Assembly: GCA_944371605.1 (NCBI GenBank)
Contig: CALVXU010000009.1
Coordinates: 56,866-120,865 of the forward strand
Direction: 5' to 3'
Source: an uncultured Bacilli bacterium
GTDB taxonomy: Bacteria > Bacillota_I > Bacilli_A > RFN20 > CAG-288
DNA: 64,000 nucleotides
The notes under the pieces were generated by a model. That model ran no database searches. It had not been told where the DNA came from and saw nothing but the letters and a program-made list of their open reading frames with translations. Shown here piece after piece: positions 30,957 to 48,585 of the stretch (its first letter is position 1; the number at the start of each line of letters is the position of its first letter). Both the position numbers and the translations under genes were made by a program.

Positions 30957-30967
30957 TTTAGCACCTC

Positions 30968-33900
30968 TCATTTTCTCAAACTCAAGGATTCCTGAATCTG
31001 TTTTGCACAATCATAGATGTAGATAGCACCGAACATGACCGTAGACCAAACAACTAAAGTGAATAAAACACGAGTGACAACTGGGACTAATTTTTCCCAA
31101 AGTGGAGTGATAGTAGTGAAGGAAGAATCACCAGTGATACCATTCATAGCATTAGAATTGACAACTGTGTAAAGAACATTCTTGACACAATCTCTCATAG
31201 CCCAAGCTAATTTTCCATAGCCAGTTTCGTAGTCAACAAATTGAGCACTATTTCCATCATAGTCATTACCGCCAGACCAACTGCCGATATTACCATCGGG
31301 TAAATCGTTACCATATAAGACACCTTGGATAGGAGACATATAACGACGAGAAGAGTTGTAGTCAGAAATAGCATAGCTAGTCATACCGAATTCAGCTCTT
31401 AAAACAGTGTTCAAGAAGCCTTGGCCACCAGTCCAAACAGCGCCGAGACGATTCATACCAGTCATGACGCCTAACATCGGCATATGAGTTCTCTCACCAT
31501 TCTCATCGAAAGCTAGTTCTCTATCTAATTCGATTGCGACTTCGAGAGCACGGCAATAAATCTCACGAATAGATTGTTCATTTGCCCAAACATTAAGACC
31601 AGCTCTGTGAGTCTCTTGGTCGTTTAAAACAGCGTGTTTAGCTAAAACAAATACGCCCATGTCATGTAAGCCAGCAGCTTCATAACCAGCAGCAACACCA
31701 GTCAAGAATCCATCTTCTGAATAATACTCGAAAGTTCTGCCACAATAAGCACCTCTATGAATGTTAACACCTAAACCATAGATGCCGTTATAGCCAGCCC
31801 AAATAGCTTCTTCACCAGTTTGCTTACCTATTCTTCTGATCAAATCAACGTTATAGGTAGCAGCAACAATACCATTATTAGCAAAAATAGTCGGTTTTGT
31901 ATTCACACCATCATTTCTTAATTCAGCAAATCCACGGAAAGCATTTTGACTTGGAATCGCACCATCATTACGAGAGTGAACAGGTGAGATAGCACCATTT
32001 TGTTGAGAAGTCATAGGAGCAGCGATGGAATCGATACCACGAGTATAACGTAAAGCATCTTGCAAAATATAGCAGGTCTCATCCCAAGAGATGCGATCGA
32101 GCAAAGTATCCCAGTCAGGGTCATCGAAAGATTTTCCGCGTAAATAGATGAGTTTGATTTCATCAAACATATCATCGCCTTCATAGAAGCCGATTTCATC
32201 ATAAGTCGGATAAGCGATATTATCTTGTTCAACAGCTGGCACCTTTTGTGCTTCAGCCAATTCAGAGCTAGCAGTCAATTTGATGACTTTACCATAAGTG
32301 CCAGTCCAATTGCTTCTAGTCATATAAGGTTGCGACTCTTCACTTTCAGAGAAAAGGCCAGCTTTCTGATAGTCAGTGTTATCGAATTGGTTAGTGATAG
32401 AGGAGACACCATAGTTAGCTTCTTCACCAGGATATCGAGCTTCAAAGTTTTCATTTTGTTGTTCGATATAGTCATTGGTAGAGTACTTAGTAGCACTATA
32501 AGCGATATGTTTACCCCAAACTAAAGACTTATCACCATTGCCACGACCATCATTAGTAGTGATGCTCTCTAAATCGACATCAACACCATTATCGGCTTTG
32601 TATTGTAAGAAATTATTTTCAGCATCATGCGCATCTTTAGCGACTGTGAATAAATATTCATCATCTTCATCGCTAGAACCAATGACATAAGTCTTCTCAC
32701 CATTAGCATCATAAGCAGCTAAATACTTGCCTTTGATCTCAATGGTAGCAGGAACAGTCTCATGAGCTTTGACATCCACTTTAGTGAAACCAGCTAATTC
32801 AACAGCTGATTTTTCAACACCGTTTTCAATATCCTTAGCTGTGTATGGTTTTTGGATATATGCTTGAACAACTTCTTTACCGTCGATATCTGAATTATTG
32901 GTGACATCAACTGTTAAGGTATAAGTATCCTCTTCAGTATTTTCTGTAACTTTGAAATTAGAATAAGAATAATCAGAGTAGCTTAAGCCATAACCGAAAG
33001 GATAAGATACAGCTGCTTGATAATCAAAACTACCAGCATTAGCACGATTAGTCAAAACGTCTTCATAACGAGTTTCAGTATATTTATATCCGTTATAAAT
33101 ACCTTCTTGGTAAGCGACATAGAATTTATTATTATATTCTTTTCTAGTAGCAAAATAATCCTTTAAAACACTAGAATTCCCATATTCAAAGGAACCGAAA
33201 TTATAGTAAACAGGATTATATTTGCTATCAGCAAAGAAAGTATCAGCAGTTCTGCCGGAGAAATTATATTCACCAGTTAATAACTTGCCAATCGCGTTAG
33301 CACCATTAGTGCCGATGGTTCCAACCCATAAAGCAGCATCAATACCATATTCTTCTTGATCAACAAAAGCGCTTTGGAAAGGACTTGCGCAATTCATAAT
33401 GACAATAATCTTGTCCAATTTGCCCTCATCCTTCATTCTCTTCATATTTTGAAGAACATCTTTTTCATTATCGGTTAAAGCTAAAGCATCGCCGACAGAA
33501 TTATTCGGATCACCATTATGATCACGGCTGACAATGGTTCTAGTCTGTCCATCATCCATAGTCGTATCCATATATAAGTCAATAGCTTCACCTGAGTTTC
33601 TAGCTAAAACCATGATACCAGCTTTAGCATCATTTTCTTTATCAGATGGAAGAGCAGACCAAGGGGCATCTTCGACAACTAATTGGACTTCTTGATCCTC
33701 ATAACCGATGAAGTGGCCGTTAGTAGAATTCAGATAGGAAAGACCGTTGTTTTTGTACCATTCATTTAAATTTTTATTGACACTCAAACCAGCACTGGTC
33801 AAACCTTGTTCCAAAGTGACAATATCAGCAAAAGGATCTTGGTCACCATTGACTTTGAAACTTGAAGATCCCATACCAGTGACAACCGAATGATAGGAAG

Positions 33901-34222
33901 CAGCACCGTAAAGATTAACTGTATCTTCTTTAGCTAAAGGTAATGCATCATTATCATTCTTTAACAAAACAGCACCTTCTTTTAAAGTCTCATCAATGAT
34001 ATCTTTACTGGCCTGTTTAACTTCGTCCATCGTCTCGAATTCAGTGTCAAAATAAATGTTTCCATCTGAGCCGCTGCCAGTCGATGTTTGAATCTTAAAG
34101 GTGGTATTGATGATACCAGCATAGTCTAATAACATCGGGCTAGCTGTGACAGCTAAGGCAAAAAGAACAAATGTGACATGAAAACTGATTTTAGATATTC
34201 CTAAAGCTGTTTTTCTTTTCAT
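30968..34222 (-). CDS. membrane-anchored GH3 glycosidase, permuted domain order
   Basis: GAVLLKNDNDALPL first, YQEGIYNGYKY, YPFGYGLSY, Fn3-like, then GLGVNIHRG, EYYSEDG, KHAVLNDQET, AISD; hydrophobic segments at both termini. Confidence 0.92.
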   Translation of the reverse strand: MKRKTALGISKISFHVTFVLFALAVTASPMLLDYAGIINTTFKIQTSTGSGSDGNIYFDTEFETMDEVKQASKDIIDETLKEGAVLLKNDNDALPLAKEDTVNLYGAASYHSVVTGMGSSSFKVNGDQDPFADIVTLEQGLTSAGLSVNKNLNEWYKNNGLSYLNSTNGHFIGYEDQEVQLVVEDAPWSALPSDKENDAKAGIMVLARNSGEAIDLYMDTTMDDGQTRTIVSRDHNGDPNNSVGDALALTDNEKDVLQNMKRMKDEGKLDKIIVIMNCASPFQSAFVDQEEYGIDAALWVGTIGTNGANAIGKLLTGEYNFSGRTADTFFADSKYNPVYYNFGSFEYGNSSVLKDYFATRKEYNNKFYVAYQEGIYNGYKYTETRYEDVLTNRANAGSFDYQAAVSYPFGYGLSYSDYSYSNFKVTENTEEDTYTLTVDVTNNSDIDGKEVVQAYIQKPYTAKDIENGVEKSAVELAGFTKVDVKAHETVPATIEIKGKYLAAYDANGEKTYVIGSSDEDDEYLFTVAKDAHDAENNFLQYKADNGVDVDLESITTNDGRGNGDKSLVWGKHIAYSATKYSTNDYIEQQNENFEARYPGEEANYGVSSITNQFDNTDYQKAGLFSESEESQPYMTRSNWTGTYGKVIKLTASSELAEAQKVPAVEQDNIAYPTYDEIGFYEGDDMFDEIKLIYLRGKSFDDPDWDTLLDRISWDETCYILQDALRYTRGIDSIAAPMTSQQNGAISPVHSRNDGAIPSQNAFRGFAELRNDGVNTKPTIFANNGIVAATYNVDLIRRIGKQTGEEAIWAGYNGIYGLGVNIHRGAYCGRTFEYYSEDGFLTGVAAGYEAAGLHDMGVFVLAKHAVLNDQETHRAGLNVWANEQSIREIYCRALEVAIELDRELAFDENGERTHMPMLGVMTGMNRLGAVWTGGQGFLNTVLRAEFGMTSYAISDYNSSRRYMSPIQGVLYGNDLPDGNIGSWSGGNDYDGNSAQFVDYETGYGKLAWAMRDCVKNVLYTVVNSNAMNGITGDSSFTTITPLWEKLVPVVTRVLFTLVVWSTVMFGAIYIYDCAKQIQESLSLRK

Positions 34223-34686
34223 TTGGCATTTCCTCCAGTAGATAATTCAGTCTTTTTGGTCATATGATTCTTCTCTTCCTTTGATTTTCTAAACGGAGGA
34301 ATATACATAGCGATAGATGAAAAAATGAAGGAAAGCACGAATAATAAAACTGTGACCCAAACAAATGTGTCTAAATTAAAGAACGCTTCAAATGAGAAGC
34401 CGCTGAAGAAAGCGGTTGAAAGATAGTCGATTAAACCTTCAGCCTTCGCAAATGCGCATACACATAAGAAATCACAGCACATCAAAGAGATAGGAGCTAA
34501 GACAGCTGTTTTCTTAAATAACATCAAAACACAGAAAAGACCAACGCCTAAAATAGCGAATAAGCAAACTTGTAAGTTGAATAAGTCAGTAGGAACATAG
34601 GTGTAAATCCAAGCTTGGGCAACTGTTGTCATAACAGCTAAATACCCGAATGCTCTATTCACCCAATTGATTTTTTTCTCCCTCAT
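34219..34686 (-). CDS. small 4-TM membrane protein
   Basis: 155 aa, four hydrophobic segments, overlaps GH3 start; similar to 48063-48497. Confidence 0.8.
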   Translation of the reverse strand: MREKKINWVNRAFGYLAVMTTVAQAWIYTYVPTDLFNLQVCLFAILGVGLFCVLMLFKKTAVLAPISLMCCDFLCVCAFAKAEGLIDYLSTAFFSGFSFEAFFNLDTFVWVTVLLFVLSFIFSSIAMYIPPFRKSKEEKNHMTKKTELSTGGNAK

Positions 34687-34688
34687 AA

Positions 34689-35936
34689 TTATTCCTCCTC
34701 ATTGAGGACGATAGCACTGCTATCTCCGAGAATGTTAAGATTTTCATCAAGAGTAGAAAGAGAAACAGCATCTAAATTACAAGGTGAACCAGTTCCAGCG
34801 TTTGGACCACTTGTAAAAATCAAATGATTGACACCTTTTTGTAATTCGATTTGAACACTGGGCATAGTATAAGGGGTATAGTAACCACTACCAGCACCAG
34901 GGACTTCAATGTCATCTAAAACATCAATCTTAGAGCCGTTAAGAGACACTTTGAAATAATTAGAGAAGACATCTCCTTGCGGACGTTGACAAACTAACAT
35001 GGTTAAATTGACAGTGGCTGCTTGAGAAGTGACGATTTCAAAATCAACTTTCATATTATTAGTATTAAAGCTTCGTAAACAAGCACCACCACTACAATCC
35101 CTACCATCAATAGTTTCACCTTCTGAAGATAAGAATGGTTTATTATTATCTGGCATTGTAGCTAATTGTTCTCTAGTCAATAACACATCGTCTTTATAAA
35201 CGTCTTGATTTTCAGCTTCGAGGAGAACAGTGTTCGATAACTTGCTTTCATCAATATAGCCATTGACAACAGAGGTGTCTAACTCAAGAGTTAAGTCTTG
35301 ATATCTCTTGCTAGCTAAACAAATAGTTCCCATGTTAGGAGTCATAGTGATATCTTCAGCATTTAAATAGAATTCTGAATCGACATAATAATAATTTTTT
35401 ACATCTTCAGTTTCTTCAGTAGATGTATTTTCATCGGAAGCAGTCACTTCATCAGTATTTCCTTCATTTGAAGTATCTGCAGAGGCAGCTTCTTTTTCTA
35501 AAGCAAGATCATTTTCTTTTTCATAAATCGGTTTGATAGAAGCATTATCTTCAATATCTTCTTTAGCAGTTAAGACTCCATCTTCACTATAGTACTTACG
35601 AATGACGAAGCCATATTCATCGGCAGGCATATCTGCATTATTGACGATATTCTCTAACGATGGATCTCTAGCAACCACTCTGACCTGATTCTTTTCTTTA
35701 TCAAAAGAAAAAGTATCACCAGTGAAATATGATTGCTGATAATTTGGTGAATCTAAACGGATTAGTCCCTTCGTGCCGTACTCTACCGTTGGTTCTTCAA
35801 TCAATTCTCCGCCATATAAAATAGCAACAGCGACAGAAATGACAAAAAATAGCGGTAAAAAGACAGCCAAAACAACTTTCAAAGCCTTAAAACGTGATTT
35901 TTTAGGTTCAGGCTTGATTGCAGCTTGTTCGTCCAT
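34689..35936 (-). CDS. single-pass membrane protein with C-terminal CBM6/CBM35-like domain
   Basis: N-terminal TM; VLLEAE...SGGACL...LQKGVNHLIF...NLDAV pattern; acidic linker. Confidence 0.65.
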   Translation of the reverse strand: MDEQAAIKPEPKKSRFKALKVVLAVFLPLFFVISVAVAILYGGELIEEPTVEYGTKGLIRLDSPNYQQSYFTGDTFSFDKEKNQVRVVARDPSLENIVNNADMPADEYGFVIRKYYSEDGVLTAKEDIEDNASIKPIYEKENDLALEKEAASADTSNEGNTDEVTASDENTSTEETEDVKNYYYVDSEFYLNAEDITMTPNMGTICLASKRYQDLTLELDTSVVNGYIDESKLSNTVLLEAENQDVYKDDVLLTREQLATMPDNNKPFLSSEGETIDGRDCSGGACLRSFNTNNMKVDFEIVTSQAATVNLTMLVCQRPQGDVFSNYFKVSLNGSKIDVLDDIEVPGAGSGYYTPYTMPSVQIELQKGVNHLIFTSGPNAGTGSPCNLDAVSLSTLDENLNILGDSSAIVLNEEE

Positions 35937-36059
35937 AACCCCCTCCTAGTTAAGTTGAATGACTTTAAATACAAAAATGTATAAAATCACCTACTTGTAT
36001 ATTTTAAATTTTTATGAAAAGCCTTACAACAATTAAAATGGCAAATTTCGTTGCAAATA

Positions 36060-36087
36060 TTGCAAAAGCAATTATTTTTCATTGCAT
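36060..36087 (-). promoter_or_regulatory. candidate activator site, surface operon promoter
   Basis: ATGCAA-N16-TTGCAA, 22 nt before TTTAAT. Confidence 0.45.
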
Positions 36088-36340
36088 TTTCACCATTTGA
36101 CATAAATAATCCGTGAATTGTCACTGTTGATTATCATCTTTTTTATCATCAATGACATTAACTCTTTCTTTAAAAAGTTTGAATGAGGAAGAACATTTTA
36201 AAAAAGCATGTTGCAAAAAAAGTTTCTTTTTTAACATTTTATGAAAAACAATTTGCTATTTAATCCTTGTAAGCGCTATTCTATTGTAGAAGTGCATAGC
36301 TTACTTTTGTTATGTACCGAAAATTGAAAGGAAAACATCT

Positions 36341-38353
36341 ATGGAAACAACAGACGCAAAAAAAAGTTTCTTCGAAACTCCTATGCTCTCTACAAAGATT
36401 AAGTCTGCCAATGTAAAACTCGTTCCAGAAGCTGCATTTGGTTACTTAGTCGGTCCTGCATTCGCTCTGATTGCAAATAGTGTTGTCAACACCTATTTAA
36501 GTCAGTATTGGCGCAATGTCTTAGGTTTGGGTGAATGGGCTTATACATTCACATGGTTACTTCCTTTAATCTCAGCAGTCATCATCGTTGTCGGCAATTT
36601 ATTAGTCGGAAGATTATTTGAAAGAAAACCGACCATCGCTGGCAAAGCTCGTCCGTTTATTCTCATCGGTATGCCATTGATGGCAATCGCTCTTTTAATC
36701 CTCTTCCTAGTTCCATTCCCTAAAGGTGCTACCGCTCAAAATCCTAACTGGTTAACTCTAGTATTTATCGCTGTCGGTTACAACCTTTATTATGCTGTAG
36801 CTTATCCATTCTATTACACTTCACACTCCGCTTTAGTCAATCTTTCCACCCGTGATAGATCTAAGAGATCATTGCTAGCTACTGCTTCCAATGCTGCTCA
36901 AATCGTTGCGTCTGGAGCCGCTGGTATGGTTGCACCATTCTTCATTGATGCTTTAGGATTGCTTCCTGCTGGTGAAGTTACTGGTCAGCTAGCTGATGAA
37001 GCCGCCAGAAGTGAAGCTAACAGCAAGTGGGTCATCTTGATGGTCATCTTGATCGTCATCCAAGTGATCGGCTGCTTATTAGAGTACTATTTCACTAGAG
37101 AAAGAATCACTGAAGAAAAATTCAAATTAAAAATTGCAAATTCTGCTGACAATCTCGCATTAGAAGCTAAAAAAGTTCCTATGAGCCAACAGGTTAAAAT
37201 TTGTGCTCGTGACAAATTCTGGTGGATGGTAATCATCTTCTACTTCCTCTATCAATTAGGTGGTATGTTAAAGAACAATGATGCAACTTGGTTCTCTCAA
37301 GCTTTCTTAGGTGCTAACCAAACCAAATTAGCTGGTACTATCAATACAGTTGGTGCTATTCCTACTGCTTTAGGTATGTTAGTCATTTGGCCATTAGCTA
37401 GAAAATTCGGCAAGGCCAATTGTATTAAAGTAGGTGGATTCTTAGCCTTTTTGATGGGATGCTTAGGATTCTTAGTTTTACCTTTAAGCGACAACACCTC
37501 TGCCGTCTGGGGCATTTCTATCACTGCCTTCTGCTTAAAATCTATCGGCACCGTCCCTGCTATGTATATTTCTATGGCTTTATTATCTGACGTTTTGGAA
37601 CACCAAGAAGCTATTTATGGTATTAGAACTGATGGTTTCTCAATGGCTGTTTATGGTTCAATCATGATTGCTATGCCTGGTGTCGCAAATGCTATCATCA
37701 ACCTTATTAATAATAATCCTAACATTTCTTCTAATGTTGAGACTTGGCAAATCGCCAACACCTTTATCTACTTCGGTGGTGAATCTATCTGCTACTTATT
37801 GATCGGTCTCATCTTCTTATTTATGAATGTAGAAAGATTCTCGAAGCTTGATAAGACGGCTATTACAAACGATCAAAAAGAAGTAGCCATTAGAAAAGGT
37901 GCTGAATGGGTCGACCCCGAAATTAGACTTGAACAAGAGCAAGCTGAAGCTGAAGAGCAAGTCCATCAAGAAGAAATTGAAAACTTACGTAAACGTGTTG
38001 AGAAAAATAATGCTAAATTCCACGAGCTCACAGCTGCAGGTAAATCAACCGAATTAAAAGAACTCGTTTTCGAAGAAGAATTAGAGAAATACGAAACCGA
38101 ACGTGCGAATAAGAAAGCTGAAGCTGACAGAAAGAAAGCTGAAGCTGATAAAAAGAGAGAAGAACAACGTCTTGCTAAAGAAAAAGAGCATGAACAATGG
38201 TTAGCTTCTTTAAGTGATGACCAGCGAAATGCTTATGAAAAGAAGATGAAGGAAAAAGAAGAAAGAAAAGCTGCGTTCGATGCTGAATCCGAACGAGAAT
38301 TCTTAGAATTAAGAGATTTAGCTGCTGAAGAAAGAGCTGCTAATTTGGCTTAA
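36341..38353 (+). CDS. GPH-family MFS sugar/glycoside transporter with long charged C-terminal tail
   Basis: ~12 TM segments, GKARPFILIG, RSLLAT, TRERITE, GIRTDGF; E/K/R/A-rich tail. Confidence 0.88.
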   Translation: METTDAKKSFFETPMLSTKIKSANVKLVPEAAFGYLVGPAFALIANSVVNTYLSQYWRNVLGLGEWAYTFTWLLPLISAVIIVVGNLLVGRLFERKPTIAGKARPFILIGMPLMAIALLILFLVPFPKGATAQNPNWLTLVFIAVGYNLYYAVAYPFYYTSHSALVNLSTRDRSKRSLLATASNAAQIVASGAAGMVAPFFIDALGLLPAGEVTGQLADEAARSEANSKWVILMVILIVIQVIGCLLEYYFTRERITEEKFKLKIANSADNLALEAKKVPMSQQVKICARDKFWWMVIIFYFLYQLGGMLKNNDATWFSQAFLGANQTKLAGTINTVGAIPTALGMLVIWPLARKFGKANCIKVGGFLAFLMGCLGFLVLPLSDNTSAVWGISITAFCLKSIGTVPAMYISMALLSDVLEHQEAIYGIRTDGFSMAVYGSIMIAMPGVANAIINLINNNPNISSNVETWQIANTFIYFGGESICYLLIGLIFLFMNVERFSKLDKTAITNDQKEVAIRKGAEWVDPEIRLEQEQAEAEEQVHQEEIENLRKRVEKNNAKFHELTAAGKSTELKELVFEEELEKYETERANKKAEADRKKAEADKKREEQRLAKEKEHEQWLASLSDDQRNAYEKKMKEKEERKAAFDAESEREFLELRDLAAEERAANLA

Positions 38354-38376
38354 TCCATTATCTCATAGCTGATTTT

Positions 38377-38410
38377 AGCCTTTGATCTGAAAAGGTCGAA
38401 GGCTTTTTTT
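38377..38410 (+). terminator. terminator after MFS
   Basis: AGCCTTTGATCT-GAAA-AGGTCGAAGGCT then T-tract. Confidence 0.8.
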
Positions 38411-38448
38411 GTTTCATTTTATATCCAGAAAATTACATTAATTTTAGG

Positions 38449-38477
38449 TTGAAACACAAATATGATTATGGTATCAT
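38449..38477 (+). promoter_or_regulatory. rpmB promoter
   Basis: TTGAAA - 17 nt - TATCAT with TG extension. Confidence 0.65.
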
Positions 38478-38525
38478 TTTAAAGCACGTTTTTATTGTGA
38501 TTATATAAGTTTGGAGGAGATTACT

Positions 38526-38750
38526 ATGTCAAGAAAATGCCCACTTACCGGTAAAGGTCCGATGTCTGGTAATTATGTCTCTCACTCTATGAGACATAAT
38601 CGTCGTCGTTTCAATGTCAACTTACAATGGACTACTGTTGTTGTTGATGGCAAGAAACAAAGAATCAAGGTTTCCACTGCTGCTATTCGTACTTTAAGAA
38701 AGAATGCGAAAGCTAAAGAAGCCAAACCAGCAGAAGCTGTTGCCGCTTAA
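38526..38750 (+). CDS. rpmB: 50S ribosomal protein L28
   Basis: MSRKCPLTGKGPMSGNYVSHS..HNRRRFNVNLQ; ATG at 38526 behind GGAGGA. Confidence 0.95.
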   Translation: MSRKCPLTGKGPMSGNYVSHSMRHNRRRFNVNLQWTTVVVDGKKQRIKVSTAAIRTLRKNAKAKEAKPAEAVAA

Positions 38751-38764
38751 TAATATATGTGTTT

Positions 38765-38790
38765 GCTGAGCTAATAGCTCAGCTTTTTTT
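38765..38790 (+). terminator. terminator after rpmB
   Basis: GCTGAGCT-AAT-AGCTCAGC then T7. Confidence 0.85.
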
Positions 38791-38806
38791 CTTATTACAA
38801 AGCCAC

Positions 38807-38862
38807 TAAAAAAGCTGTAACTTTGACCTCGAGTTAAGTTTGAGATCTTGTTACAGCTCTTT
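38807..38862 (-). terminator. terminator after glgA
   Basis: AGCTGTAAC...GTTACAGCT stem with T-tract on minus strand. Confidence 0.65.
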
Positions 38863-38883
38863 TAATTTTTTAAGAATAAAGGC

Positions 38884-40293
38884 TTATTTCCAAGTTATCG
38901 AGTTATAGAGATTCAAGTATTCTTTAGCAGAAAGATGCCATCCATAATCACCATTCATCCCGTTGATGATCTCACGTTTAAGACCTGGATTATAAAAATA
39001 AGAAGCTGAAGCATAGAAGCAATTGATGAAGCCAAAATAATCTTTATTGTTGAAAACAAACCCAGTGGCTTCTTCACCGCGAGAGAGATCTTTAACTGTA
39101 TCATTTAACCCACCAACATTAGAGACGATTGGAACGGTTCCATAGCGCATGGAGATCAATTGACTTGTTCCACACGGTTCAAAATAAGAAGGCATCAAGA
39201 AATAATCACTAGCTGCATATAGGATGTGAGCAAGGTTTTCATCATATCTCTTGATGAAATAAACTTCTGGATATTGCAAAGAATTATATAGGAAATTATC
39301 CTCCATCTCACCAGTACCAATGACGATTAAACGCGCATCTGCAGCCTTTAATTGTGGCATGCATTGGATGAGTCTTTCGACACCTTTCTGAGAAGAGAGA
39401 CGAGTGATTGCTGAATAGAGCGGCCCCTTAAAATCGCATGACATTCCTAATGAATTTAAGAGAGCGACTTTATTTGCTTTCTTACCTTCTACATAATTAT
39501 CAACTGAATAATTTTGATAAAGATGTTTGTCGGTTTGTGGATTCCATAAATCAGTGTCTAACCCATTGACAATACCGACAAAATCGTTATGTCTACACCA
39601 ATCGATGATAGCTCCGATACCTCCAAAACTTTCATGGTCATGCAGTAGTTCTTGGCAATGAGTTCTTGAAACTGTTGAGATTTTATCCGCTGTCATAATA
39701 CCAGTCTTCAAGAAATTGAAACAATCTCCCATTCTTACCAAGCCGGAATCAAAATAATCTGTATGTAAATTAAAATACTTCGATAAATCTTCTCTTCTAG
39801 CATAACCTTGATAGGCTGGATTATGAATAGTGAGAACAGTTTTTATCGGATTGGGATTATATCTTAAGAGCAATGGAAGCACTGCTGTCTGCCAATCATT
39901 GCAATGAACGACATCAAAGACATTATGACGAGTGATAAAAGTGTTGACAGCCATCATAAAGGCGGCAAAACGAGCGATGTCATCATCATATCCGTATAGA
40001 TTAGGACGATTAAACCATTCGTCCATAGCTAAGAAATAATAATCAACGCCATTGACAGTATGTTTAAAGACGCCGCAACCTTGCTGTCTCCAATTCATAT
40101 AGAAGTCAAAAGAATCATAATAGCCATGCATGATTTCAGGATGTTTTTCTCTGATAGTTTGATAAAAAGGGAGTATGACTGAGACTTGTTGATTCTCTTT
40201 GACTAATGCTTTTCCGAAAGAAAAAATAAAATCTGCCAATCCGCCTGATTTACAAAACGGAAGTGCTTCACCAGTGACTAAAAGAATTTTCAT
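38884..40293 (-). CDS. glgA: glycogen synthase
   Basis: KSGGLAD, VHCNDWQTA, TIHNPAYQG, PSYFEPCG, NVGGLNDTV. Confidence 0.96.
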   Translation of the reverse strand: MKILLVTGEALPFCKSGGLADFIFSFGKALVKENQQVSVILPFYQTIREKHPEIMHGYYDSFDFYMNWRQQGCGVFKHTVNGVDYYFLAMDEWFNRPNLYGYDDDIARFAAFMMAVNTFITRHNVFDVVHCNDWQTAVLPLLLRYNPNPIKTVLTIHNPAYQGYARREDLSKYFNLHTDYFDSGLVRMGDCFNFLKTGIMTADKISTVSRTHCQELLHDHESFGGIGAIIDWCRHNDFVGIVNGLDTDLWNPQTDKHLYQNYSVDNYVEGKKANKVALLNSLGMSCDFKGPLYSAITRLSSQKGVERLIQCMPQLKAADARLIVIGTGEMEDNFLYNSLQYPEVYFIKRYDENLAHILYAASDYFLMPSYFEPCGTSQLISMRYGTVPIVSNVGGLNDTVKDLSRGEEATGFVFNNKDYFGFINCFYASASYFYNPGLKREIINGMNGDYGWHLSAKEYLNLYNSITWK

Positions 40294-41408
40294 TAAACGA
40301 TATCTCCTCTGGCGATATAAAGAGGATCATCTAAAGTTCCGATGACTTCCGAAACATGTAAAACTTGAGCCTCTTTATCAACAATGGCATTTTCGATATG
40401 TGTGTTGACATCAATGACTGCTCCAGAACCGATGACCGAATTCTTAATCACTACGCCTTTATGAACCTTGACATCACGACCGACGATAGAATTGATGACT
40501 GTTCCTTCGATGATCGAGCCATTAGCGATAGTTGAATTCTTCACCAAAGCTCCTGGCTTATAGAGAGTCGGTGGCGTATCATAAGTCTTAGTATAAATAG
40601 GCCAGTTTTCTTTAAAGAGAGTGTTATATACGCTCTCATCTAATAGTTCTAATGAATACTTGAGATAATGCTTTAAGGAATCAAATGATCTGACATATCC
40701 ATTATGTTTCACCGCTCTGATTAACACAGAAGGTGAGACATAATTTAAAGCATCAGCTAATGAAAAGAAAGAAGAAGTTCCTGAGGCATATTCGATGAGA
40801 TTTTCTAACATCGGATAGTCCATAATCATCGTTCCTAAAGAAACATCACCTTCATCAGTTTCACCGCGATTAATCTCAAATTTAGTGACTTTTCCGCGAT
40901 CAGAAATGTACACTTTTCTAGCATTTATGAATGAACTCTTTAAGCCTGTAACATGAGCATATAATAGTGAAATACGACTTTTTGAAGCGATATGATCCGC
41001 TAATAATTGTGAAAAATCTTCCTGGAAGACCACATGAGGTGAAGATATAACAACATAATCAGGATTCACTTGTTTTAAAAACCAGCGATTTTCAATCAAG
41101 TCAGCTACGTCAGTATTATAAGAAGAATTAGCGATATTGGGTTCATCATACAAAACATGGAAATCACCGATTTTAGTATTAGTAATCCAGGTTCTGCCAC
41201 TCCCGACGTGTCTTGACAAAGAACGAATATGATGTTGGCATAAAACACCGATAGAAGGGATTTTTGAATTTAAAAAGTTAGATAAAACAAAATCGATAAA
41301 AGCGTAACGACCTAAAAATGAAGTAGAAGCGATAGCGCGATGCCTAGTCATCGGGCCGAAATTAGGATTATTAAAACAATCGACTAGACCTAATACTTTA
41401 ATAGCCAT
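40293..41408 (-). CDS. glgD: ADP-glucose pyrophosphorylase subunit GlgD
   Basis: FLGRYAFIDFVLSN, IYTKTYDTPPTLY, beta-helix tail; between glgC and glgA. Confidence 0.9.
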   Translation of the reverse strand: MAIKVLGLVDCFNNPNFGPMTRHRAIASTSFLGRYAFIDFVLSNFLNSKIPSIGVLCQHHIRSLSRHVGSGRTWITNTKIGDFHVLYDEPNIANSSYNTDVADLIENRWFLKQVNPDYVVISSPHVVFQEDFSQLLADHIASKSRISLLYAHVTGLKSSFINARKVYISDRGKVTKFEINRGETDEGDVSLGTMIMDYPMLENLIEYASGTSSFFSLADALNYVSPSVLIRAVKHNGYVRSFDSLKHYLKYSLELLDESVYNTLFKENWPIYTKTYDTPPTLYKPGALVKNSTIANGSIIEGTVINSIVGRDVKVHKGVVIKNSVIGSGAVIDVNTHIENAIVDKEAQVLHVSEVIGTLDDPLYIARGDIV

Positions 41409-41422
41409 TGTAGTTTACCTCC

Positions 41423-42529
41423 CTAGTCGTTGACGAGGATTATGTCCTCATCCTTTCCTATTTTATCGTTAGACACCACAGTTTTACTTCCAACGATAGC
41501 ATAATTAACTTTGACATCTTTTTTAATCACTGCTCCAGGCATGATGAATGAATTGACAATTTCAGCACCTGGTTCAATGACAGCTTCATTCGAGACTATC
41601 GAATGAATGACTTTTCCTTTTACTACTGCGCCTTGATTGATGATAGAATCTTTGACTTCAGCACTAGGAGAAATATATTGTGGACGTGAACAAGTATCTG
41701 CTGAATAGATTTTAAAGTCTTTAGAGAAAAGATGGAGCAAACAATCAGAATCTAATAAATCCATATTGGATTCCCATAAAGATTTTATAGTTCCGACATC
41801 TTTCCAATAGCCTGTAAATGGATAGGCATATAAACTTCTACCGTTATTCAATAAATAAGGAAGAATATTTTTGCCGAAATCATGATCAGTTTTTTCAGCA
41901 TTATGATCTTTGATAAGAGCATCTCTTAAGAGCTTATAAGTGAAGATGTAAATTCCCATTGAGGCCAGTGTAGATTTAGGATTCTTAGGTTTTTCTTGGA
42001 ACTCTTGAATCTTGTGTTCTTTATCAGCGACGATGATACCAAAACGCGATGCCTCTTCAAGCGGAACATCAATACAAGCGATAGTGACATCTGCACCATT
42101 TTTCTTGTGGAACTTAAGCATATCAGAATAATCCATCTTATAGATGTGATCACCAGAAAGAATGACAACATATTCGCAGTGCGTCTTATCTAACCAATCG
42201 ATGTTTTGATAAATAGCATCTGCAGTGCCTAAGTACCAACTGGCACCATCAGGTGTTTCTCTTGGTGGCAAAATTGAAGTCAATGCACCAGTACCATTTA
42301 ATCCCCAACTGGCACCAGTACCGATATAATTGTTTAAAACTGTTGATTCATATTGTGTAGCGACACCAACACAATTTATACCGGAATTTGCGACATTCGA
42401 CAAAACGAAGTCGATGATACGATACTTCCCACCAAAAAAAACAGCTGGCTTAGCAATTTTGCTAGTCAACGATTTAAGGCGGGTTCCTCTACCACCGGCT
42501 AAAATCATGGCAACCATCTCTTCTTTCAT
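41423..42529 (-). CDS. glgC: glucose-1-phosphate adenylyltransferase
   Basis: ILAGGRGTRL, AKPAVFFGGKYRIIDF, LSGDHIYKMDY, YWKDVGT; start 42529 behind AGGAGG. Confidence 0.97.
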   Translation of the reverse strand: MKEEMVAMILAGGRGTRLKSLTSKIAKPAVFFGGKYRIIDFVLSNVANSGINCVGVATQYESTVLNNYIGTGASWGLNGTGALTSILPPRETPDGASWYLGTADAIYQNIDWLDKTHCEYVVILSGDHIYKMDYSDMLKFHKKNGADVTIACIDVPLEEASRFGIIVADKEHKIQEFQEKPKNPKSTLASMGIYIFTYKLLRDALIKDHNAEKTDHDFGKNILPYLLNNGRSLYAYPFTGYWKDVGTIKSLWESNMDLLDSDCLLHLFSKDFKIYSADTCSRPQYISPSAEVKDSIINQGAVVKGKVIHSIVSNEAVIEPGAEIVNSFIMPGAVIKKDVKVNYAIVGSKTVVSNDKIGKDEDIILVND

Positions 42530-42541
42530 GATAGCCTCCTG

Positions 42542-42569
42542 TGTAAACGCTTTCAATATGGATATTATA
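42542..42569 (-). promoter_or_regulatory. glgC -10 box and consensus cre site
   Basis: TATAAT (42564-69) followed by TGAAAGCGTTTACA (42542-55), a full match to cre consensus. Confidence 0.75.
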
Positions 42570-42888
42570 CACTTTTTTTCTCTTCGAAAAAAGAATAATT
42601 CTCAACTTGTCCAGTTTTTTACATTATTGACATAAAGACGATTTTTAAACAAAAAATAAGTTAGCATTTTCATCTTTTTTCGAACTATATTTCCATAACA
42701 AATATACCACTCATTTATAATTTAGTAGCATTTTTTTATTTAAAAGACTATCAGTGTGCACAAATTCATTTTTTATTAATATAATATATTTACAAAGCGT
42801 TTACTTAATCAAATAAACTTGAGTATTTTTGTATCTCTTTCAGCTTCGGACATATGGCAAGTTTTGAAAAGGTAAAAGTGAGGTTAAA

Positions 42889-44898
42889 ATGTCATATAAG
42901 TTTAATGTCCAAGAAAAGAAATATGGAACTATTAGGCAACAATTCTATGAACTTCCTGATAGAGGCTTATGCAATTTTTATAATGGTGACAGCAAGTTAT
43001 TCTTCAAAACATTAAGCGGTAAAAAGCTGAACAAAAATCAATATTTAGTCTTCCAAAGCGAAGCGTTTGATTCAAAAAATATCGACTTATTTCAAAACAA
43101 ATATTTGAGCTATATCCCTAAATGTGATGCTTTAATAAACAACAAGTCAATCAAAGAAAATCTCGAACTTGCCTTTTTAGTTTCGCAGTTAGAATATCGT
43201 CTAGATTCGATCAAAGAGCTTTTTTCACTCGTTGACTTAGCTTATAGCGATGATTATCTCGATGTTTTCCTAGATCTCAAAGTAAAAAGACTCACACGTT
43301 TAGATTATTTTAAGCTTTCACTAGCTATCTCTCTTCTTAAAAAGCCAAAGATTATCATCATAGAAAGTATGAATAATCTGCTGAATGATGATATGATCGA
43401 TTGTTTAAATATCATTAAAAAACTGAGCCGAGATCGTGCGATATATGTCTCATGTAAAAATGATTCAAAAACAAAATTATATTTTGATTTTGTAGTAGAT
43501 TTAAAAGAACTCAAACCGATAAAAATAGCTGAGAATAGTGAATTTTATTATCACTATGATTATGGTGATTTATCACATAAAAATTCTGATTCATCTGTGA
43601 TAAAGCAATCATTAAAACATAACAAAGCCTCCATCTGTTCAATGATTGCTCTAACAAGTGTCATCTTTGGACTTTTCACTACTTCTATATCTTTATATTC
43701 CACTGATAGTCGCGCTTTATTCATCGATAAGCTATATGAAAATGATGTCGATTCATTGATGATTGAAAAAAAATATATGCGTGCCGATGGTCATAGCGGA
43801 AGCTATGATATCATTGATTATGACTTCGATGAAGAAGAGAAACAAAGAATAACTGAACATAACAATAATAGCAGTCTATTTATAGATGTTTTGCCTTCAT
43901 CTTTTAGCATTCAAAATAATGTCATCGAGAAAATTGATACTTTTAGTAACCTATATTTTCAAGAAATATATGGTTTAGAGATCACTGATAAAACAACTGC
44001 TGACTGTTTGAATTTAAAGCCTGTCAATTTTGAATCACGCTTTCCAAAAAACAAAGATGAGATCGCTTTGACCGATTATCAGGCTAATCTTCTTTGCAAT
44101 TATGGGCTCAGTGAAACAACCAGTCATTTGACACCGACTGAACTGATCGGTAAAAAATATAATGGTTTAACAATCACTGGAATATTTAAAACCAGCTATG
44201 ATGATTACCAGACTTATAAAGAATATATAAATAATGAAGATAAATTGACTGATGATATTTCAAATATTGCTAGAGGTTTTACTTTAGATAAATGCTTTTT
44301 CGTCTGCGATGATTTCTTCGCAAATATCAATCAAGATTTTAGTGGTTATAATAAAGCATTTATTCGATTAAGCGGTGATAGAAATAAAGATATCAAGTTT
44401 ATAAATACTTTTAAAAATGATCGGACATTTATCGAACTTCACGGCAAGTATGAAAACTATTTCATCATTTTGTTTAATGTCTTCCAAGTCAAGAACACTT
44501 ATCGCAATATCACTAATTGGGTTAATGATAGTAATACTAAAATGTGGGCTATCATAATCTCAATAACTGTCTTTGGCTTGATATATGAAGTTCTCATGCT
44601 CTTAATCATCAATCGCAACACGATAAAAGAATTATTGCTGTTAAATAATTTAGGTGCCGAAAGAAAAATGATCAAGTCGCTTCTAATAAAAAAGATGCTT
44701 ATCATCGGCTTAATCGAACTCATATCCAGTTTAATCATCTCAGTGATCAGCTGCATAGTGATCAATCACTTCATAAATTTCACAATCTCTAATATAACCA
44801 TAATCGGAATACTCATCTGCACTATTTTAATCATCTTCGCCCTGCTTCTAACTTCCGCAATCATCATGAACAGATATCACAAAAAGATCAAAGAATAA
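42889..44898 (+). CDS. MacB/FtsX-like permease fused to degenerate ABC ATPase domain
   Basis: LTRLDYFKLSLAISLLKKPKIIIIES resembles signature/Walker B; no Walker A; 1 TM + large loop + 3 C-terminal TM. Confidence 0.65.
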   Translation: MSYKFNVQEKKYGTIRQQFYELPDRGLCNFYNGDSKLFFKTLSGKKLNKNQYLVFQSEAFDSKNIDLFQNKYLSYIPKCDALINNKSIKENLELAFLVSQLEYRLDSIKELFSLVDLAYSDDYLDVFLDLKVKRLTRLDYFKLSLAISLLKKPKIIIIESMNNLLNDDMIDCLNIIKKLSRDRAIYVSCKNDSKTKLYFDFVVDLKELKPIKIAENSEFYYHYDYGDLSHKNSDSSVIKQSLKHNKASICSMIALTSVIFGLFTTSISLYSTDSRALFIDKLYENDVDSLMIEKKYMRADGHSGSYDIIDYDFDEEEKQRITEHNNNSSLFIDVLPSSFSIQNNVIEKIDTFSNLYFQEIYGLEITDKTTADCLNLKPVNFESRFPKNKDEIALTDYQANLLCNYGLSETTSHLTPTELIGKKYNGLTITGIFKTSYDDYQTYKEYINNEDKLTDDISNIARGFTLDKCFFVCDDFFANINQDFSGYNKAFIRLSGDRNKDIKFINTFKNDRTFIELHGKYENYFIILFNVFQVKNTYRNITNWVNDSNTKMWAIIISITVFGLIYEVLMLLIINRNTIKELLLLNNLGAERKMIKSLLIKKMLIIGLIELISSLIISVISCIVINHFINFTISNITIIGILICTILIIFALLLTSAIIMNRYHKKIKE

Positions 44899-44920
44899 AG
44901 AAAAGGTTTTAAATAAATAT

Positions 44921-44952
44921 AAAAAGGATGTGAACTAAATCACATCCTTTTT
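44921..44952. terminator. bidirectional terminator
   Basis: AAAAAGGATGTGA-ACTAAA-TCACATCCTTTTT between convergent genes. Confidence 0.9.
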
Positions 44953-44975
44953 ATTATCTAGTCATCAAGATTTGA

Positions 44976-47900
44976 TTAATCTTCTTCTTTCTTTTTTAAA
45001 TTCTTTCGATAATATTCAAAGCCGAAGAAGCCGATAGAAGCGGCGGTGAGAACACCTAAGACGCTATCAGCAGCGATTAATCCGATCTGATAAGGAGTGA
45101 GAACATGGACCAAACGAGTATTAGAATCCCAGCCATTCATAGCAGATGAATGACAAACAGTATAAAGAATACGTTTGGCTGATTCTCTCATCTTCCATGC
45201 GAGTTCTCCATATCCTTCTTTATAAGCATCGAATTGAGAATTGATATTAGCACCATCGACAAGATCGTTTCCGCAGAAAACCCCATAAGGCATCTTCAAT
45301 AGTCCCATGTAGAAGGTTAAAGTTCCGTATTGTTGAAGCATATACATATCAGTGACAACAAAACCATCAAATCCTTCTTCACCTCTCAACCAATCAGTCA
45401 AAAGATTTGAACTAGCCCCAGAGACAGAGGTTCCAACACGATTATAAGAACTCATCATAGCATGAGCATCACCTTCTTCGATAGCGATTTGGAAAGCTTC
45501 TAAATACAATTCACGGAAGCTCTGTTCATTAAGCCATGTAGAAAGACCATAACGACTAGTCTCTTGGTCATTTAAAACGAAGTGTTTGATATAGGCATAG
45601 ACACCTTTGGATTGAATACCAGCGACTTGAACACTCGCTGTCTTGCCGGATAAGAAACCATCTTCAGAATAATATTCAGGATTGCGAGAAGAGTATTGAG
45701 TGCGGTGGAGGTTCATAGCTGGTCCATAAATACCTTTATAACCAGCCCAAAGACAATTTTCACCATACATCTTACCAACTCTATCGATCAATTCAGCATT
45801 CATAGTCGAAGCTAAGACACCAGCAGCCGGGAAAGTTGAAGGTCTTGCAGTCGGATCTTCATTATTTTTATAAGCTAATCCATTTTGACTAGTAGCGAAT
45901 AATTCAGTGACACCTAGAGGACCGTTATGATCAAGGGTTGCAGGTTTGCCGAGAACACCTTCAAGACCAGCAGTGGATCTCATACCATTAGAGAGAAGTT
46001 GGACAGTATCATCCCAAGTGAGCTGATCGAGATAAGTATCCCAAATGTCAGCATCATAAGGGATTTCGTTTCCATCAGTATCCTCTCTTAAACTGACTAA
46101 AGACAAGCCATTATTAGCACCATATGTCGGATACTCGATATCATCTTTTTGAAGTAGGCTTTCATCCCAACCAGTGCGGAAATCTTCAAGCATCTTTTTA
46201 GTCATCGTGATCTTAGTATAACTATCATTGTTATCAAGAGAATCTAAAACCACAGTGCCTTGCCAATCGTTTCTAGTGATGTAGGTGACAGGAGAGGTGT
46301 CTTTGGTCTCAGCATATTTGTTCAAATCAGCATTATCGAATAAATTAGTGATCTTTTGACCAGTCGCTTTAGATGTGGAATACTTAGTCGTGTCAACTTC
46401 TTCTTGGTTCAAAGCAACTTTAGCTAAAGAAGCATCACCTTCATCATCCATTCTGCCATCAGCAGGAGAATAACCTAGATTAGCCAATAAATTATTAGTT
46501 GCATCGTGAGCACCATTACCTAAAACTAGATAATATTCGCCTGGAGTTAAGACATAAGTCTTCGAAGTGTTAGCATCATAAGAAGCGAATTGACGACCGT
46601 CGACAGTATATGTGATATTTTCTGTATCGCCAGGTTCTATCAAAGGAGTTTTTTGATATCCGACTAATTCAACAGCACTTGCCTCGATGCCATTTTTAAT
46701 ATTGTAGTCAGTATATGGTTTTGATAAATAGATCTCGACAACATCTTTTCCAGCGACATCACCGCTATTTGTGACATCAACTGAAACCTGATAATCGTCT
46801 CCAGTTCTGCTCACTTTGTAATTAGAATAGGTGAATTCGGTGTAAGATAAACCGAAACCGAAAGGAACAGCAACTGTCGAAGCATAGTCGAAATCACCAG
46901 TCTTTTCCCTATTAGCCACATAATCAGCATAACGTGTTTCTGTGTAACGATAACCGAGATAAATGCCTTCTTGATAAACGACATAATGTCCTTCATAACC
47001 ACCGACACCATCAGTCGCTTCATGCAAAGTCAAACCATCAGGATTTAAGAACTCATATCCTAATTGATTGGTCAAAGTCGGATTTTGATCATTAGAATAC
47101 CAAAGAGTATCATTGCTCTTGCCAGAAGGGTTAGCATTTCCAGCTAATAAATCACCGACACCATTAAAGCCAGTAGTACCGACCGTTTGTATCTGTAAAC
47201 AAGCATCGATTCCGAATTCCTCATCATCTAGGAAACCTAAATCAATCGTGGCTGTGCAGTTTAATAAGACGATGATCTTTTTGACTGTTCCAGCATCTTT
47301 TAAAGCTTTTAAGCCGCGTAAAACGCTCATCTCATCATTAGATAATGTCAAAGCATCACCATTCGGAGTGTTTTCAGTTCCAGAACGATTGACGTCTTTG
47401 TTTCCTTCACCAGAAACACGAGTGATATTCATTATTGCTGCATCACCATATTGGGCGATAGATGAACCAAAACCAGCATTAGCGACATCCCAAGGAACTT
47501 CACCAACTCTTTGAATCAATGGATTAGGAGTTCCCATACCATTTCTTTGAGTGCCATAAGTCGATTGGACTTCAGAATCACTGTAATAATCCCAAGCGGT
47601 TGGATTGACTTCAAAACCAGCATGTTCTAATCCTGCTTTCAAAGTGACTTCACGACCAGTAGCGCTTGAGCTAGCGACTGAACCTGAAGATGTTAAGCTT
47701 GAGACAACAGAAGCGATGCCGACAGTGGTAACCTTAGAATTTTTAGCAAGTGGCAAAGCTTCGTTTTTATTCATGATAAGAACAGCACCTTCTTCCACTT
47801 CCTCTTCGATGAGTTCATCAGTATCTTCAATCAAATCATCTAAGTGCTCATACTCAGATTTATAATATTCGGTATCTTTTTCTTCACCATCAGCCGCTTC

Positions 47901-48050
47901 ATCTTGAACAATCTCCCAAGAAGTGGTGCCTAAAGCAGTATTGATTGCTAAAACATTCTCATTGCAGATGACGGTAGTCAAAATAGACAAACCTAAAAGA
48001 GAAGCAAAAGTAGTCAAACAAATCTTACTCGCAGTATATCTTTTACTCAT
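44976..48050 (-). CDS. second membrane-anchored permuted GH3 glycosidase
   Basis: GAVLIMNKNEALPL, YQEGIYLGYRY, PFGFGLSY, GPAMNLHRT, EYYSEDG, KHFVLNDQET, FVVTD; TM at both ends. Confidence 0.92.
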   Translation of the reverse strand: MSKRYTASKICLTTFASLLGLSILTTVICNENVLAINTALGTTSWEIVQDEAADGEEKDTEYYKSEYEHLDDLIEDTDELIEEEVEEGAVLIMNKNEALPLAKNSKVTTVGIASVVSSLTSSGSVASSSATGREVTLKAGLEHAGFEVNPTAWDYYSDSEVQSTYGTQRNGMGTPNPLIQRVGEVPWDVANAGFGSSIAQYGDAAIMNITRVSGEGNKDVNRSGTENTPNGDALTLSNDEMSVLRGLKALKDAGTVKKIIVLLNCTATIDLGFLDDEEFGIDACLQIQTVGTTGFNGVGDLLAGNANPSGKSNDTLWYSNDQNPTLTNQLGYEFLNPDGLTLHEATDGVGGYEGHYVVYQEGIYLGYRYTETRYADYVANREKTGDFDYASTVAVPFGFGLSYTEFTYSNYKVSRTGDDYQVSVDVTNSGDVAGKDVVEIYLSKPYTDYNIKNGIEASAVELVGYQKTPLIEPGDTENITYTVDGRQFASYDANTSKTYVLTPGEYYLVLGNGAHDATNNLLANLGYSPADGRMDDEGDASLAKVALNQEEVDTTKYSTSKATGQKITNLFDNADLNKYAETKDTSPVTYITRNDWQGTVVLDSLDNNDSYTKITMTKKMLEDFRTGWDESLLQKDDIEYPTYGANNGLSLVSLREDTDGNEIPYDADIWDTYLDQLTWDDTVQLLSNGMRSTAGLEGVLGKPATLDHNGPLGVTELFATSQNGLAYKNNEDPTARPSTFPAAGVLASTMNAELIDRVGKMYGENCLWAGYKGIYGPAMNLHRTQYSSRNPEYYSEDGFLSGKTASVQVAGIQSKGVYAYIKHFVLNDQETSRYGLSTWLNEQSFRELYLEAFQIAIEEGDAHAMMSSYNRVGTSVSGASSNLLTDWLRGEEGFDGFVVTDMYMLQQYGTLTFYMGLLKMPYGVFCGNDLVDGANINSQFDAYKEGYGELAWKMRESAKRILYTVCHSSAMNGWDSNTRLVHVLTPYQIGLIAADSVLGVLTAASIGFFGFEYYRKNLKKKEED

Positions 48051-48062
48051 ATTCGTTAACTC

Positions 48063-48497
48063 CTATTCAGTGACCTTATCTTTTTCGTCAACGGCCGCAC
48101 CTTTCTTATATAGAGGTAAAAAGATAGAAGCAATGCTGAAGCCATAAGTTAAAAAGTAAAAGATAAGAGAGAAAATAAAATCAATAGAAAAGCTTTCGAT
48201 ATCGATACCGGTAAAAACTGTAGCGACATAGTTGTAGCAAGCATAAATAAAGAACCCGATACCCAAAGCGCTCAAAATGGTGTTGATAGCTGGAGCGAAT
48301 TGGAACTTATCAAAAACAAATAAAGCGATATCGACTAAGATGAGGAGTAGAAAACAAACAAAAGTGCCCCAAGATTGATAACTAGTGGCTGAACCGACAA
48401 GACAGAGAATAAAAGAGATGAGAGAGAACAACATCGTAGCGAAGATGAAGTAAGAGCCTAGACTACTTCTTTTAAATCGTTCTAAAATACCTTTCAT
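48063..48497 (-). CDS. small 4-TM membrane protein (paralog of 34219-34686)
   Basis: 144 aa, GGAGG RBS, shared (L/F)AP, Y.(S/A)T.F and terminal P.(F/Y).K motifs. Confidence 0.8.
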   Translation of the reverse strand: MKGILERFKRSSLGSYFIFATMLFSLISFILCLVGSATSYQSWGTFVCFLLLILVDIALFVFDKFQFAPAINTILSALGIGFFIYACYNYVATVFTGIDIESFSIDFIFSLIFYFLTYGFSIASIFLPLYKKGAAVDEKDKVTE

Positions 48498-48585
48498 TTA
48501 CACCTCCGATAAAAGACAAGTTAAGCGGCTAAAAACTTTTGAGAAAAATAGTTTTCACATGCCATTTAACTAATAAAAATTATAA

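Follow-up and report, generated by a model that had tools for sequence, protein, structure and literature searches.

Glycoside hydrolases of family 3 (GH3) are among the most abundant glycosidases of gut and rumen metagenomes and are usually studied as soluble, stand-alone enzymes. Permuted members of the family are known from GlyA1 (PDB 5K6L-5K6O), in which Asp-709 is the nucleophile and Glu-143 the acid/base residue (Ramirez-Escudero et al., 2016; PMC5104943), and β-glucuronidase activity within GH3 is on record for SN243, which was recovered in a metagenomic droplet screen (bioRxiv 10.1101/2022.04.25.489410). In Butyrivibrio proteoclasticus B316, secreted GH3s with a C-terminal transmembrane (TM) helix are encoded beside LytTR regulators (Kelly et al., 2010; PMC2914790). 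The present analysis concerns a 64,000-nucleotide stretch of DNA, hereafter the window, from an uncultured Bacilli bacterium (GTDB lineage Bacillota_I; Bacilli_A; RFN20; CAG-288; assembly GCA_944371605.1, contig CALVXU010000009.1, positions 56,866 to 120,865), in which two genes for permuted GH3s are each paired with a gene for a small protein with four TM helices (4-TM protein). An initial annotation of this DNA had taken the small protein to be a dedicated membrane subunit of the enzyme, acting as chaperone, scaffold or product channel; the two precedents that it cited, permuted GH3s and a GH3 β-glucuronidase, are the published ones given above. The permuted GH3 subfamily is known, and the 4-TM partner family is apparently undescribed: in the literature, no description was found of the family or of its pairing with GH3, and nothing was found on DUF8429, a domain matched by one family member, or on membrane-anchored GH3 in Mollicutes.

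Gene pairs, fusions and co-divergence

Both gene pairs lie on the minus strand, and the open reading frames (ORFs) and their translations agree with the annotation of a small gene directly upstream of a GH3 gene in each. In module 1, the small gene (34219..34686; P0002, 155 amino acids, aa) and the GH3 gene (30968..34222; P0001, 1084 aa) share 4 nt (ATGA) between the stop of the former and the start of the latter. In module 2, the small gene (48063..48497; P0004, 144 aa) is preceded by a GGAGG ribosome-binding site (48503-48507, minus strand) and separated by a 12-nt gap from its GH3 gene (44976..48050; P0003, 1024 aa), whose own AGGAG site overlaps the P0004 stop codon; an intrinsic terminator on the same strand (44919..44954), consisting of a 15-bp stem and then a T-run, closes this two-gene operon.

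Pairwise similarity between P0002 and P0004 is weak (E 6e-4), yet both match a profile of their family strongly (E 6.7e-35 and 8.9e-38, respectively) and the motif pairs quoted earlier for them align, in keeping with the paralogy that had been proposed. When every ORF of the 1.43-Mb genome was searched iteratively with a profile, the result converged on exactly six proteins, P0002 and P0004 included; with a profile built from 143 database relatives, these six scored 2e-24 to 1e-44, and the next best protein scored no better than 0.005. A HMMER scan of 1.84 billion representative proteins recovered 440 clusters at E <= 1e-3 and 217 at E <= 1e-10. None of the database relatives bears a name. P0002 and P0004 had no Pfam match at E <= 0.01 (and noise alone at E <= 10) and no credible NCBIfam match. 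For one member, P0049, which ends in a coiled-coil extension, there is a precomputed match to PF28533 (DUF8429) that may or may not cover the 4-TM domain; the other members examined are without a precomputed Pfam match. Such extensions, ∼150 aa long, cytoplasmic and either coiled-coil or charged, were seen in three metagenomic members (P0036, P0049 and P0066; loci L063 and L066), still directly upstream of a GH3; one of these GH3s is 2215 aa long and is preceded by a LytTR/AgrC pair.

The genome encodes 25 GH3 paralogs, of which 23 are permuted, nearly all of the latter with hydrophobic helices near both ends. All six members of the small family lie directly upstream of a permuted GH3 gene, an arrangement with a chance expectation of about (25/1400)^6, and the paralog tree has a branch with all six partnered GH3s to one side of it (Shimodaira-Hasegawa approximate likelihood-ratio test, SH-aLRT, 79). 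Linkage elsewhere was tallied for 56 profile matches (E < 1e-5), drawn from metagenome contigs and from further genomes that share the family, order or class of this one. In total, 31 of these were directly upstream of a permuted GH3, 20 were directly downstream and one was fused to a GH3; two lay at a contig end and were not assessable, one was a false positive (a DUF308 protein) and one was a true orphan (L059). A permuted GH3 therefore adjoins or is fused to 52 of the 53 assessable members, and the possibility that homologs would prove mostly unlinked to GH3 was not borne out in this genome or elsewhere. The statement in the initial annotation that the small gene is always directly upstream is correct for this genome (6/6) but does not extend to the family, in which 20 of the 52 linked cases elsewhere are directly downstream. 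The upstream and downstream arrangements correspond to different clades of the small-protein tree; adjacency has therefore outlasted changes in gene order.

At least three natural fusions of the two genes were found. L037 (1193 aa, same genus) and P0108 (1129 aa, metagenome) each run from the 4-TM domain through the GH3 N-terminal TM helix and the ectodomain to the C-terminal TM helix, and they are only 36% identical, so that the fusion is either old and maintained or arose twice. The third, P0140, ends at a contig end. TM4 is joined to the GH3's own TM helix by a cytoplasmic loop of about 10-11 residues in L037 and P0140, and the GH3 helix is therefore held against the four-helix bundle. A further candidate, P0147, was examined as a GH3 with a C-terminal small domain; its barrel stops just past the nucleophile, where the small protein takes over from TM2, and it was treated as an assembly chimera or deletion and not counted.

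The 4-TM domain also occurs in long variants of 456-713 aa (L038:3954-6095, L039:2771-4879, L073:5013-6416, L074:4137-5507, L075:3392-5473, and L076:3402-5468), where it is followed by a fifth TM helix and a large, conserved, β-rich ectodomain without a family match. All of these are encoded directly downstream of a GH3. Their predicted architecture shows the 4-TM domain acting as a membrane base. The AlphaFold2 model of a long variant, made from a six-sequence alignment, was too poor (predicted local distance difference test, pLDDT, 42.5) to name the ectodomain fold, and no relationship was found between this ectodomain and the 415-aa protein encoded beside module 1.

Distances among the small proteins and among the N-terminal halves of their cognate GH3s were strongly correlated (Mantel r = 0.83, 34 pairs), with none of 2000 permutations reaching as high a value; the modules therefore duplicate and diverge as units. 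Two other species of the genus carry orthologs of P0002 (57% identity) in the corresponding position. Within the taxonomic family, 28 of 67 genomes encode a member, as do 16 of 399 genomes of a class-wide sample; besides this genome, the latter comprised 10 from the same order and five from other orders, each of the five with a single copy and four of them single-contig assemblies. A phylum-level sample was made up of the same genomes as the class-wide one. Relatives with taxonomic names include a Candidatus Onthovivens metagenome-assembled genome (MAG) and uncultured Bacillota, and Ala/Arg-rich members on metagenome contigs suggest that the family also occurs in higher-GC Firmicutes. Three weak profile matches, L040, L077 (a DUF308 protein) and L078, were false or doubtful and were left out. 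The last of these (L078:5031-5474, minus strand; E about 1e-6) is a 147-aa 4-TM protein encoded in an operon with a 1071-aa surface protein bearing InlB B-repeats; either it is distantly related to the family and has another kind of surface protein as its partner, or the match is a false positive.

Enzyme architecture and the small-protein fold

P0001 and P0003 are 35% identical over their full length. In both, the Pfam positions place the α/β and Fn3-like domains before the TIM barrel, as had been annotated: Glyco_hydro_3_C at 85-379, Fn3-like at 450-510 and Glyco_hydro_3 at 778-897 in P0001, and the same domains at 90-367, 436-512 and 738-906 in P0003. Judged by sequence, the two belong to the known permuted (GlyA1-type) subfamily. 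The motif KHAVLNDQE (862-870) and the nucleophile D954 within AISD (951-954) of P0001 have counterparts in KHFVLNDQE (822-830) and D901 within VVTD (898-901) of P0003; the nucleophiles align with each other, and the KH pair (862-863 and 822-823, respectively) is common to both. An SGE motif is present in the sandwich domain of P0001 (210-212), of P0003 (213-215) and also of the fusion proteins, and its Glu is presumably the acid/base residue. Among PDB sequence matches, 2X40 and the permuted 5K6L were nearest, and 5WUG was also found. No NCBIfam equivalog cut-off was reached by either enzyme, the best match being an arabinopyranosidase model (NF041610; 222 bits against a cut-off of 1300).

One hydrophobic helix lies near each terminus of both enzymes (7-25 and 1045-1063 in P0001; 10-28 and 991-1009 in P0003), with basic residues flanking the cytoplasmic side of both helices. 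The initial annotation was thus accurate as to a helix at each end; the double anchoring that it drew from them is likely rather than certain, since V-x-A sites come after the N-terminal helix of both GH3s and this helix could be a cleaved signal peptide.

The AlphaFold2 model of the small protein (P0004; 143 sequences) was confident (pLDDT 92.6; predicted template modelling score, pTM, 0.83) and comprised four TM helices and a short N-terminal amphipathic helix. A Foldseek search of this model against the PDB gave no significant match (best E 0.21). Conserved positions of the family include a basic N-terminal motif (I-K-x-F-F-K-x-K..G-F-Y), Gly52, Lys131, and tyrosines at the outer ends of TM1 and TM3 (Tyr32/36/40 and Tyr88/90); no conserved charged or polar residue was found within the membrane in the conservation profile. 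The SMR/EmrE, SemiSWEET and GtrA-like families were considered, and neither a Pfam match, a conserved intramembrane charge nor a fold match pointed to any of them. By the positive-inside rule, with a basic N terminus and an acidic third loop, both ends of the protein are cytoplasmic; a TM helix that follows it therefore leads outward to the ectodomain, and the topology is self-consistent. Among orthologs of P0004 (45-75% identity), the outer part of TM3 and the third, extracellular loop are invariant, and this region differs among paralogs. A determinant for recognition of the cognate enzyme would be expected to vary in this way.

Role of the small protein

With moderate confidence, the small protein is considered a dedicated membrane partner of its GH3, that is, a stoichiometric subunit packing against the terminal helices of the enzyme; contact itself is what we infer, and less confidence is placed in the exact role. 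Gene linkage, gene fusion, co-divergence, the predicted fold and the logic of the topology are what the analysis shows; linkage, coupled translation and co-divergence, and most of all the fusions, point to a stoichiometric and lasting membrane association. On this point the initial annotation gains support from adjacency (6/6 here and 52/53 elsewhere), three fusions and co-divergence. Each pair would then consist of a cell-surface exo-glycosidase and a dedicated membrane subunit, produced from one mRNA by coupled translation in amounts of about 1:1. The catalytic ectodomain of the GH3 would lie outside the cell, anchored by its C-terminal TM helix and, since the N-terminal TM helix is probably not cleaved, by that helix as well, and the small protein, a bundle of four helices whose two termini are cytoplasmic, would pack in the membrane against one or both of these anchors, its ring of conserved tyrosines at the outer membrane surface facing the juxtamembrane segment of the GH3. 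The likely effect would be to stabilise, orient or position the enzyme on an apparently wall-less cell, and the released sugars would enter through transporters of their own, for example the GPH permease encoded nearby.

No penicillin-binding protein transpeptidase (PF00905), FtsW/RodA/SpoVE SEDS protein (PF01098) or sortase (PF04203) was found in the 90%-complete genome, and control genomes were positive. The host is probably wall-less, and its surface enzymes would therefore have to be held by the membrane.

Several observations weigh against a dedicated partner. One small gene, L059:875-1309 on contig17 of a Candidatus Onthovivens sp. MAG, is an orphan. In the genome studied here, 17 other TM-anchored GH3 paralogs have no 4-TM partner, which is the chief weakness of this reading, so the partner is not needed for anchoring as such, and no partner-specific motif or feature was found in the GH3 terminal helices. 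In the unfused GH3s, moreover, the N-terminal helix might be removed by cleavage. As to its setting, the orphan gene lies at the start of its contig and is preceded by ∼870 nt of AT-rich, non-coding sequence.

Tight co-expression and adjacency would also fit a transient biogenesis factor that helps the GH3 to insert, to fold or to be protected during export, for instance by coping with a 1000-residue ectodomain between two TM helices, and that is absent from the mature enzyme; the confinement of the partner to one GH3 clade could reflect a clade-specific folding problem. Such a role is nevertheless unlikely, because fusions retained across deep divergence (36% identity) imply a permanent 1:1 association, the long variants use the 4-TM domain as a permanent anchor for another ectodomain, and the small protein was not found to resemble any known insertase or foldase, YidC and PrsA included. 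The least tenable reading, in which the small ORFs are unrelated membrane genes or non-genes lying beside GH3 by chance, could appeal to the weak pairwise similarity of the two window proteins (E 6e-4); it is effectively refuted by the 440 clusters at E <= 1e-3, near-universal linkage, the fusions, a strong ribosome-binding site and a confident fold.

Two further readings would give the small protein an activity of its own. It might link the surface GH3, as it binds or turns over substrate, to a neighbouring AgrC-like histidine kinase and LytTR regulator, the enzyme then serving as sensor. LytTR/AgrC-type systems adjoin the secreted GH3s with a C-terminal TM helix in B. proteoclasticus (PMC2914790), a kinase gene is directly upstream of the small gene in L061, in L063 and in one module of this genome (on contig C2), and 12 of the 13 full-length AgrC-like (HATPase_c_5-type) membrane kinases of the genome (for example C30:156400-157734, C2:53105-54460, and C2:7442-8740) have a GH3 paralog no more than 6 kb away. 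A kinase of this type is absent at that distance, however, from five of the six 4-TM modules, the two of the window among them, and the other 11 kinase-linked GH3s have no 4-TM partner; the kinase therefore tracks the GH3 family and not the small protein, and signal relay appears quite improbable. Alternatively, oligomers of the small protein could form a pore or small transporter for sugar released by the GH3, since its size and helix count resemble those of small oligomeric transporters and the conserved tyrosines of the outer face could stack on sugars. Inside the membrane, however, neither charged nor polar residues are conserved, the helices of the model pack tightly without reported cavity-forming features, no transporter family was matched by sequence or fold, a GPH/MFS_2 transporter adjoins module 1, and fusion to the N terminus of an enzyme would be unusual for a permease. 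A conduit is accordingly very unlikely, and of the roles suggested in the initial annotation the product channel is disfavoured.

A more elaborate form of the dedicated membrane partner is put forward tentatively. Together with the GH3's two terminal helices, the 4-TM protein could form a six-helix, membrane-integral base, an obligatory, paralog-specific auxiliary subunit of the enzyme whose tyrosine-lined outer face docks the ectodomain near the membrane and the sugar importer, and to which an extra ectodomain is added in some lineages. If true, the six-helix base would be an undescribed modular device for surface glycan harvest in wall-less and other monoderm gut bacteria, with a role analogous to that of the surface enzyme complexes of Bacteroidota.

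Genomic setting and comparison with known systems

On the minus strand, module 1 forms part of a longer operon, in the order 415-aa single-TM protein, P0002, P0001 and 1116-aa surface protein. The first gene (34689..35936) had no match in Pfam or NCBIfam, and the last (27660..31010) encodes Pfam Big_2 and Big-like domains. No minus-strand terminator was found between the 415-aa gene and P0002, and none between P0001 and the 1116-aa gene was convincing. Divergent from this operon is the gene for the GPH/MFS_2 sugar transporter (36341..38353, plus strand; Pfam MFS_2, E 1.3e-44). Between the two modules lie glycogen synthesis genes (38884-42556, minus strand) encoding a GlgA-like starch synthase, a GlgD-like protein and a GlgC-like nucleotidyl transferase, and, convergent with module 2, a gene (42889-44898, plus strand) for a 669-aa protein with five predicted TM helices and a faint FtsX-like match only.

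Other small membrane proteins are encoded beside GH3 paralogs of this genome. A second small family, of ∼90 aa with two TM helices, is represented directly upstream of two sister GH3 paralogs (C29:6898-7182 and C17:26106-26369, both minus strand), and a 174-aa ORF with four TM helices lies downstream of the GH3 C17_61837; neither showed credible homology to the 4-TM family.

The 25 GH3 paralogs of the 1.43-Mb assembly represent a great expansion of the family, and the 23 that are membrane-anchored account for ∼26,700 codons, which is about 5.6% of the assembly. This expansion may be central to the feeding of uncultured, small-genome Bacilli. If the 4-TM protein is a true subunit, work with recombinant enzyme alone may miss effects on stability, positioning and the coupling to uptake. 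The natural fusions, together with the single-copy carriers in complete genomes of a neighbouring order, would offer direct experimental entry points.

Among described systems, SN243 shows that a GH3 can have β-glucuronidase activity, which nothing in the present results assigns to the window enzymes. The tetraspan auxiliary subunits of eukaryotes, namely transmembrane AMPA receptor regulatory proteins (TARPs) and claudins, are likewise small membrane proteins of four helices, and the likeness proposed is that the 4-TM protein would accompany a larger anchored protein as TARPs do. TARPs gave the best structural overlap with the small protein, at a TM-score of about 0.58 that is not significant (E about 2), and share no sequence similarity with it; the resemblance is that of a generic helix bundle and serves as an analogy of role only. 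The GH3s of B. proteoclasticus have the C-terminal TM tether in common with the window enzymes, and AgrC/LytTR genes also lie beside many GH3 paralogs of this genome and beside some 4-TM modules elsewhere; the published account, however, describes regulator-enzyme proximity alone and no small partner (PMC2914790), whereas the modules of the window have the partner and no kinase within 6 kb. A close counterpart of the enzymes is GlyA1, likewise from a gut or rumen source, which shares with them its domain order, the nucleophile Asp in the barrel and, presumably, the acid/base Glu in the sandwich. Its structure 5K6L is among the PDB sequence matches of the window enzymes, with the barrel at residues 543-711, and their KH pair and nucleophile correspond to Lys-630/His-631 and Asp-709 of GlyA1 by motif rather than by structural superposition. 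The terms "transmembrane" and "signal peptide" occur nowhere in the GlyA1 paper, which describes no membrane partner (PMC5104943), whereas the window enzymes have a hydrophobic helix at each end and a cognate 4-TM protein encoded directly upstream.

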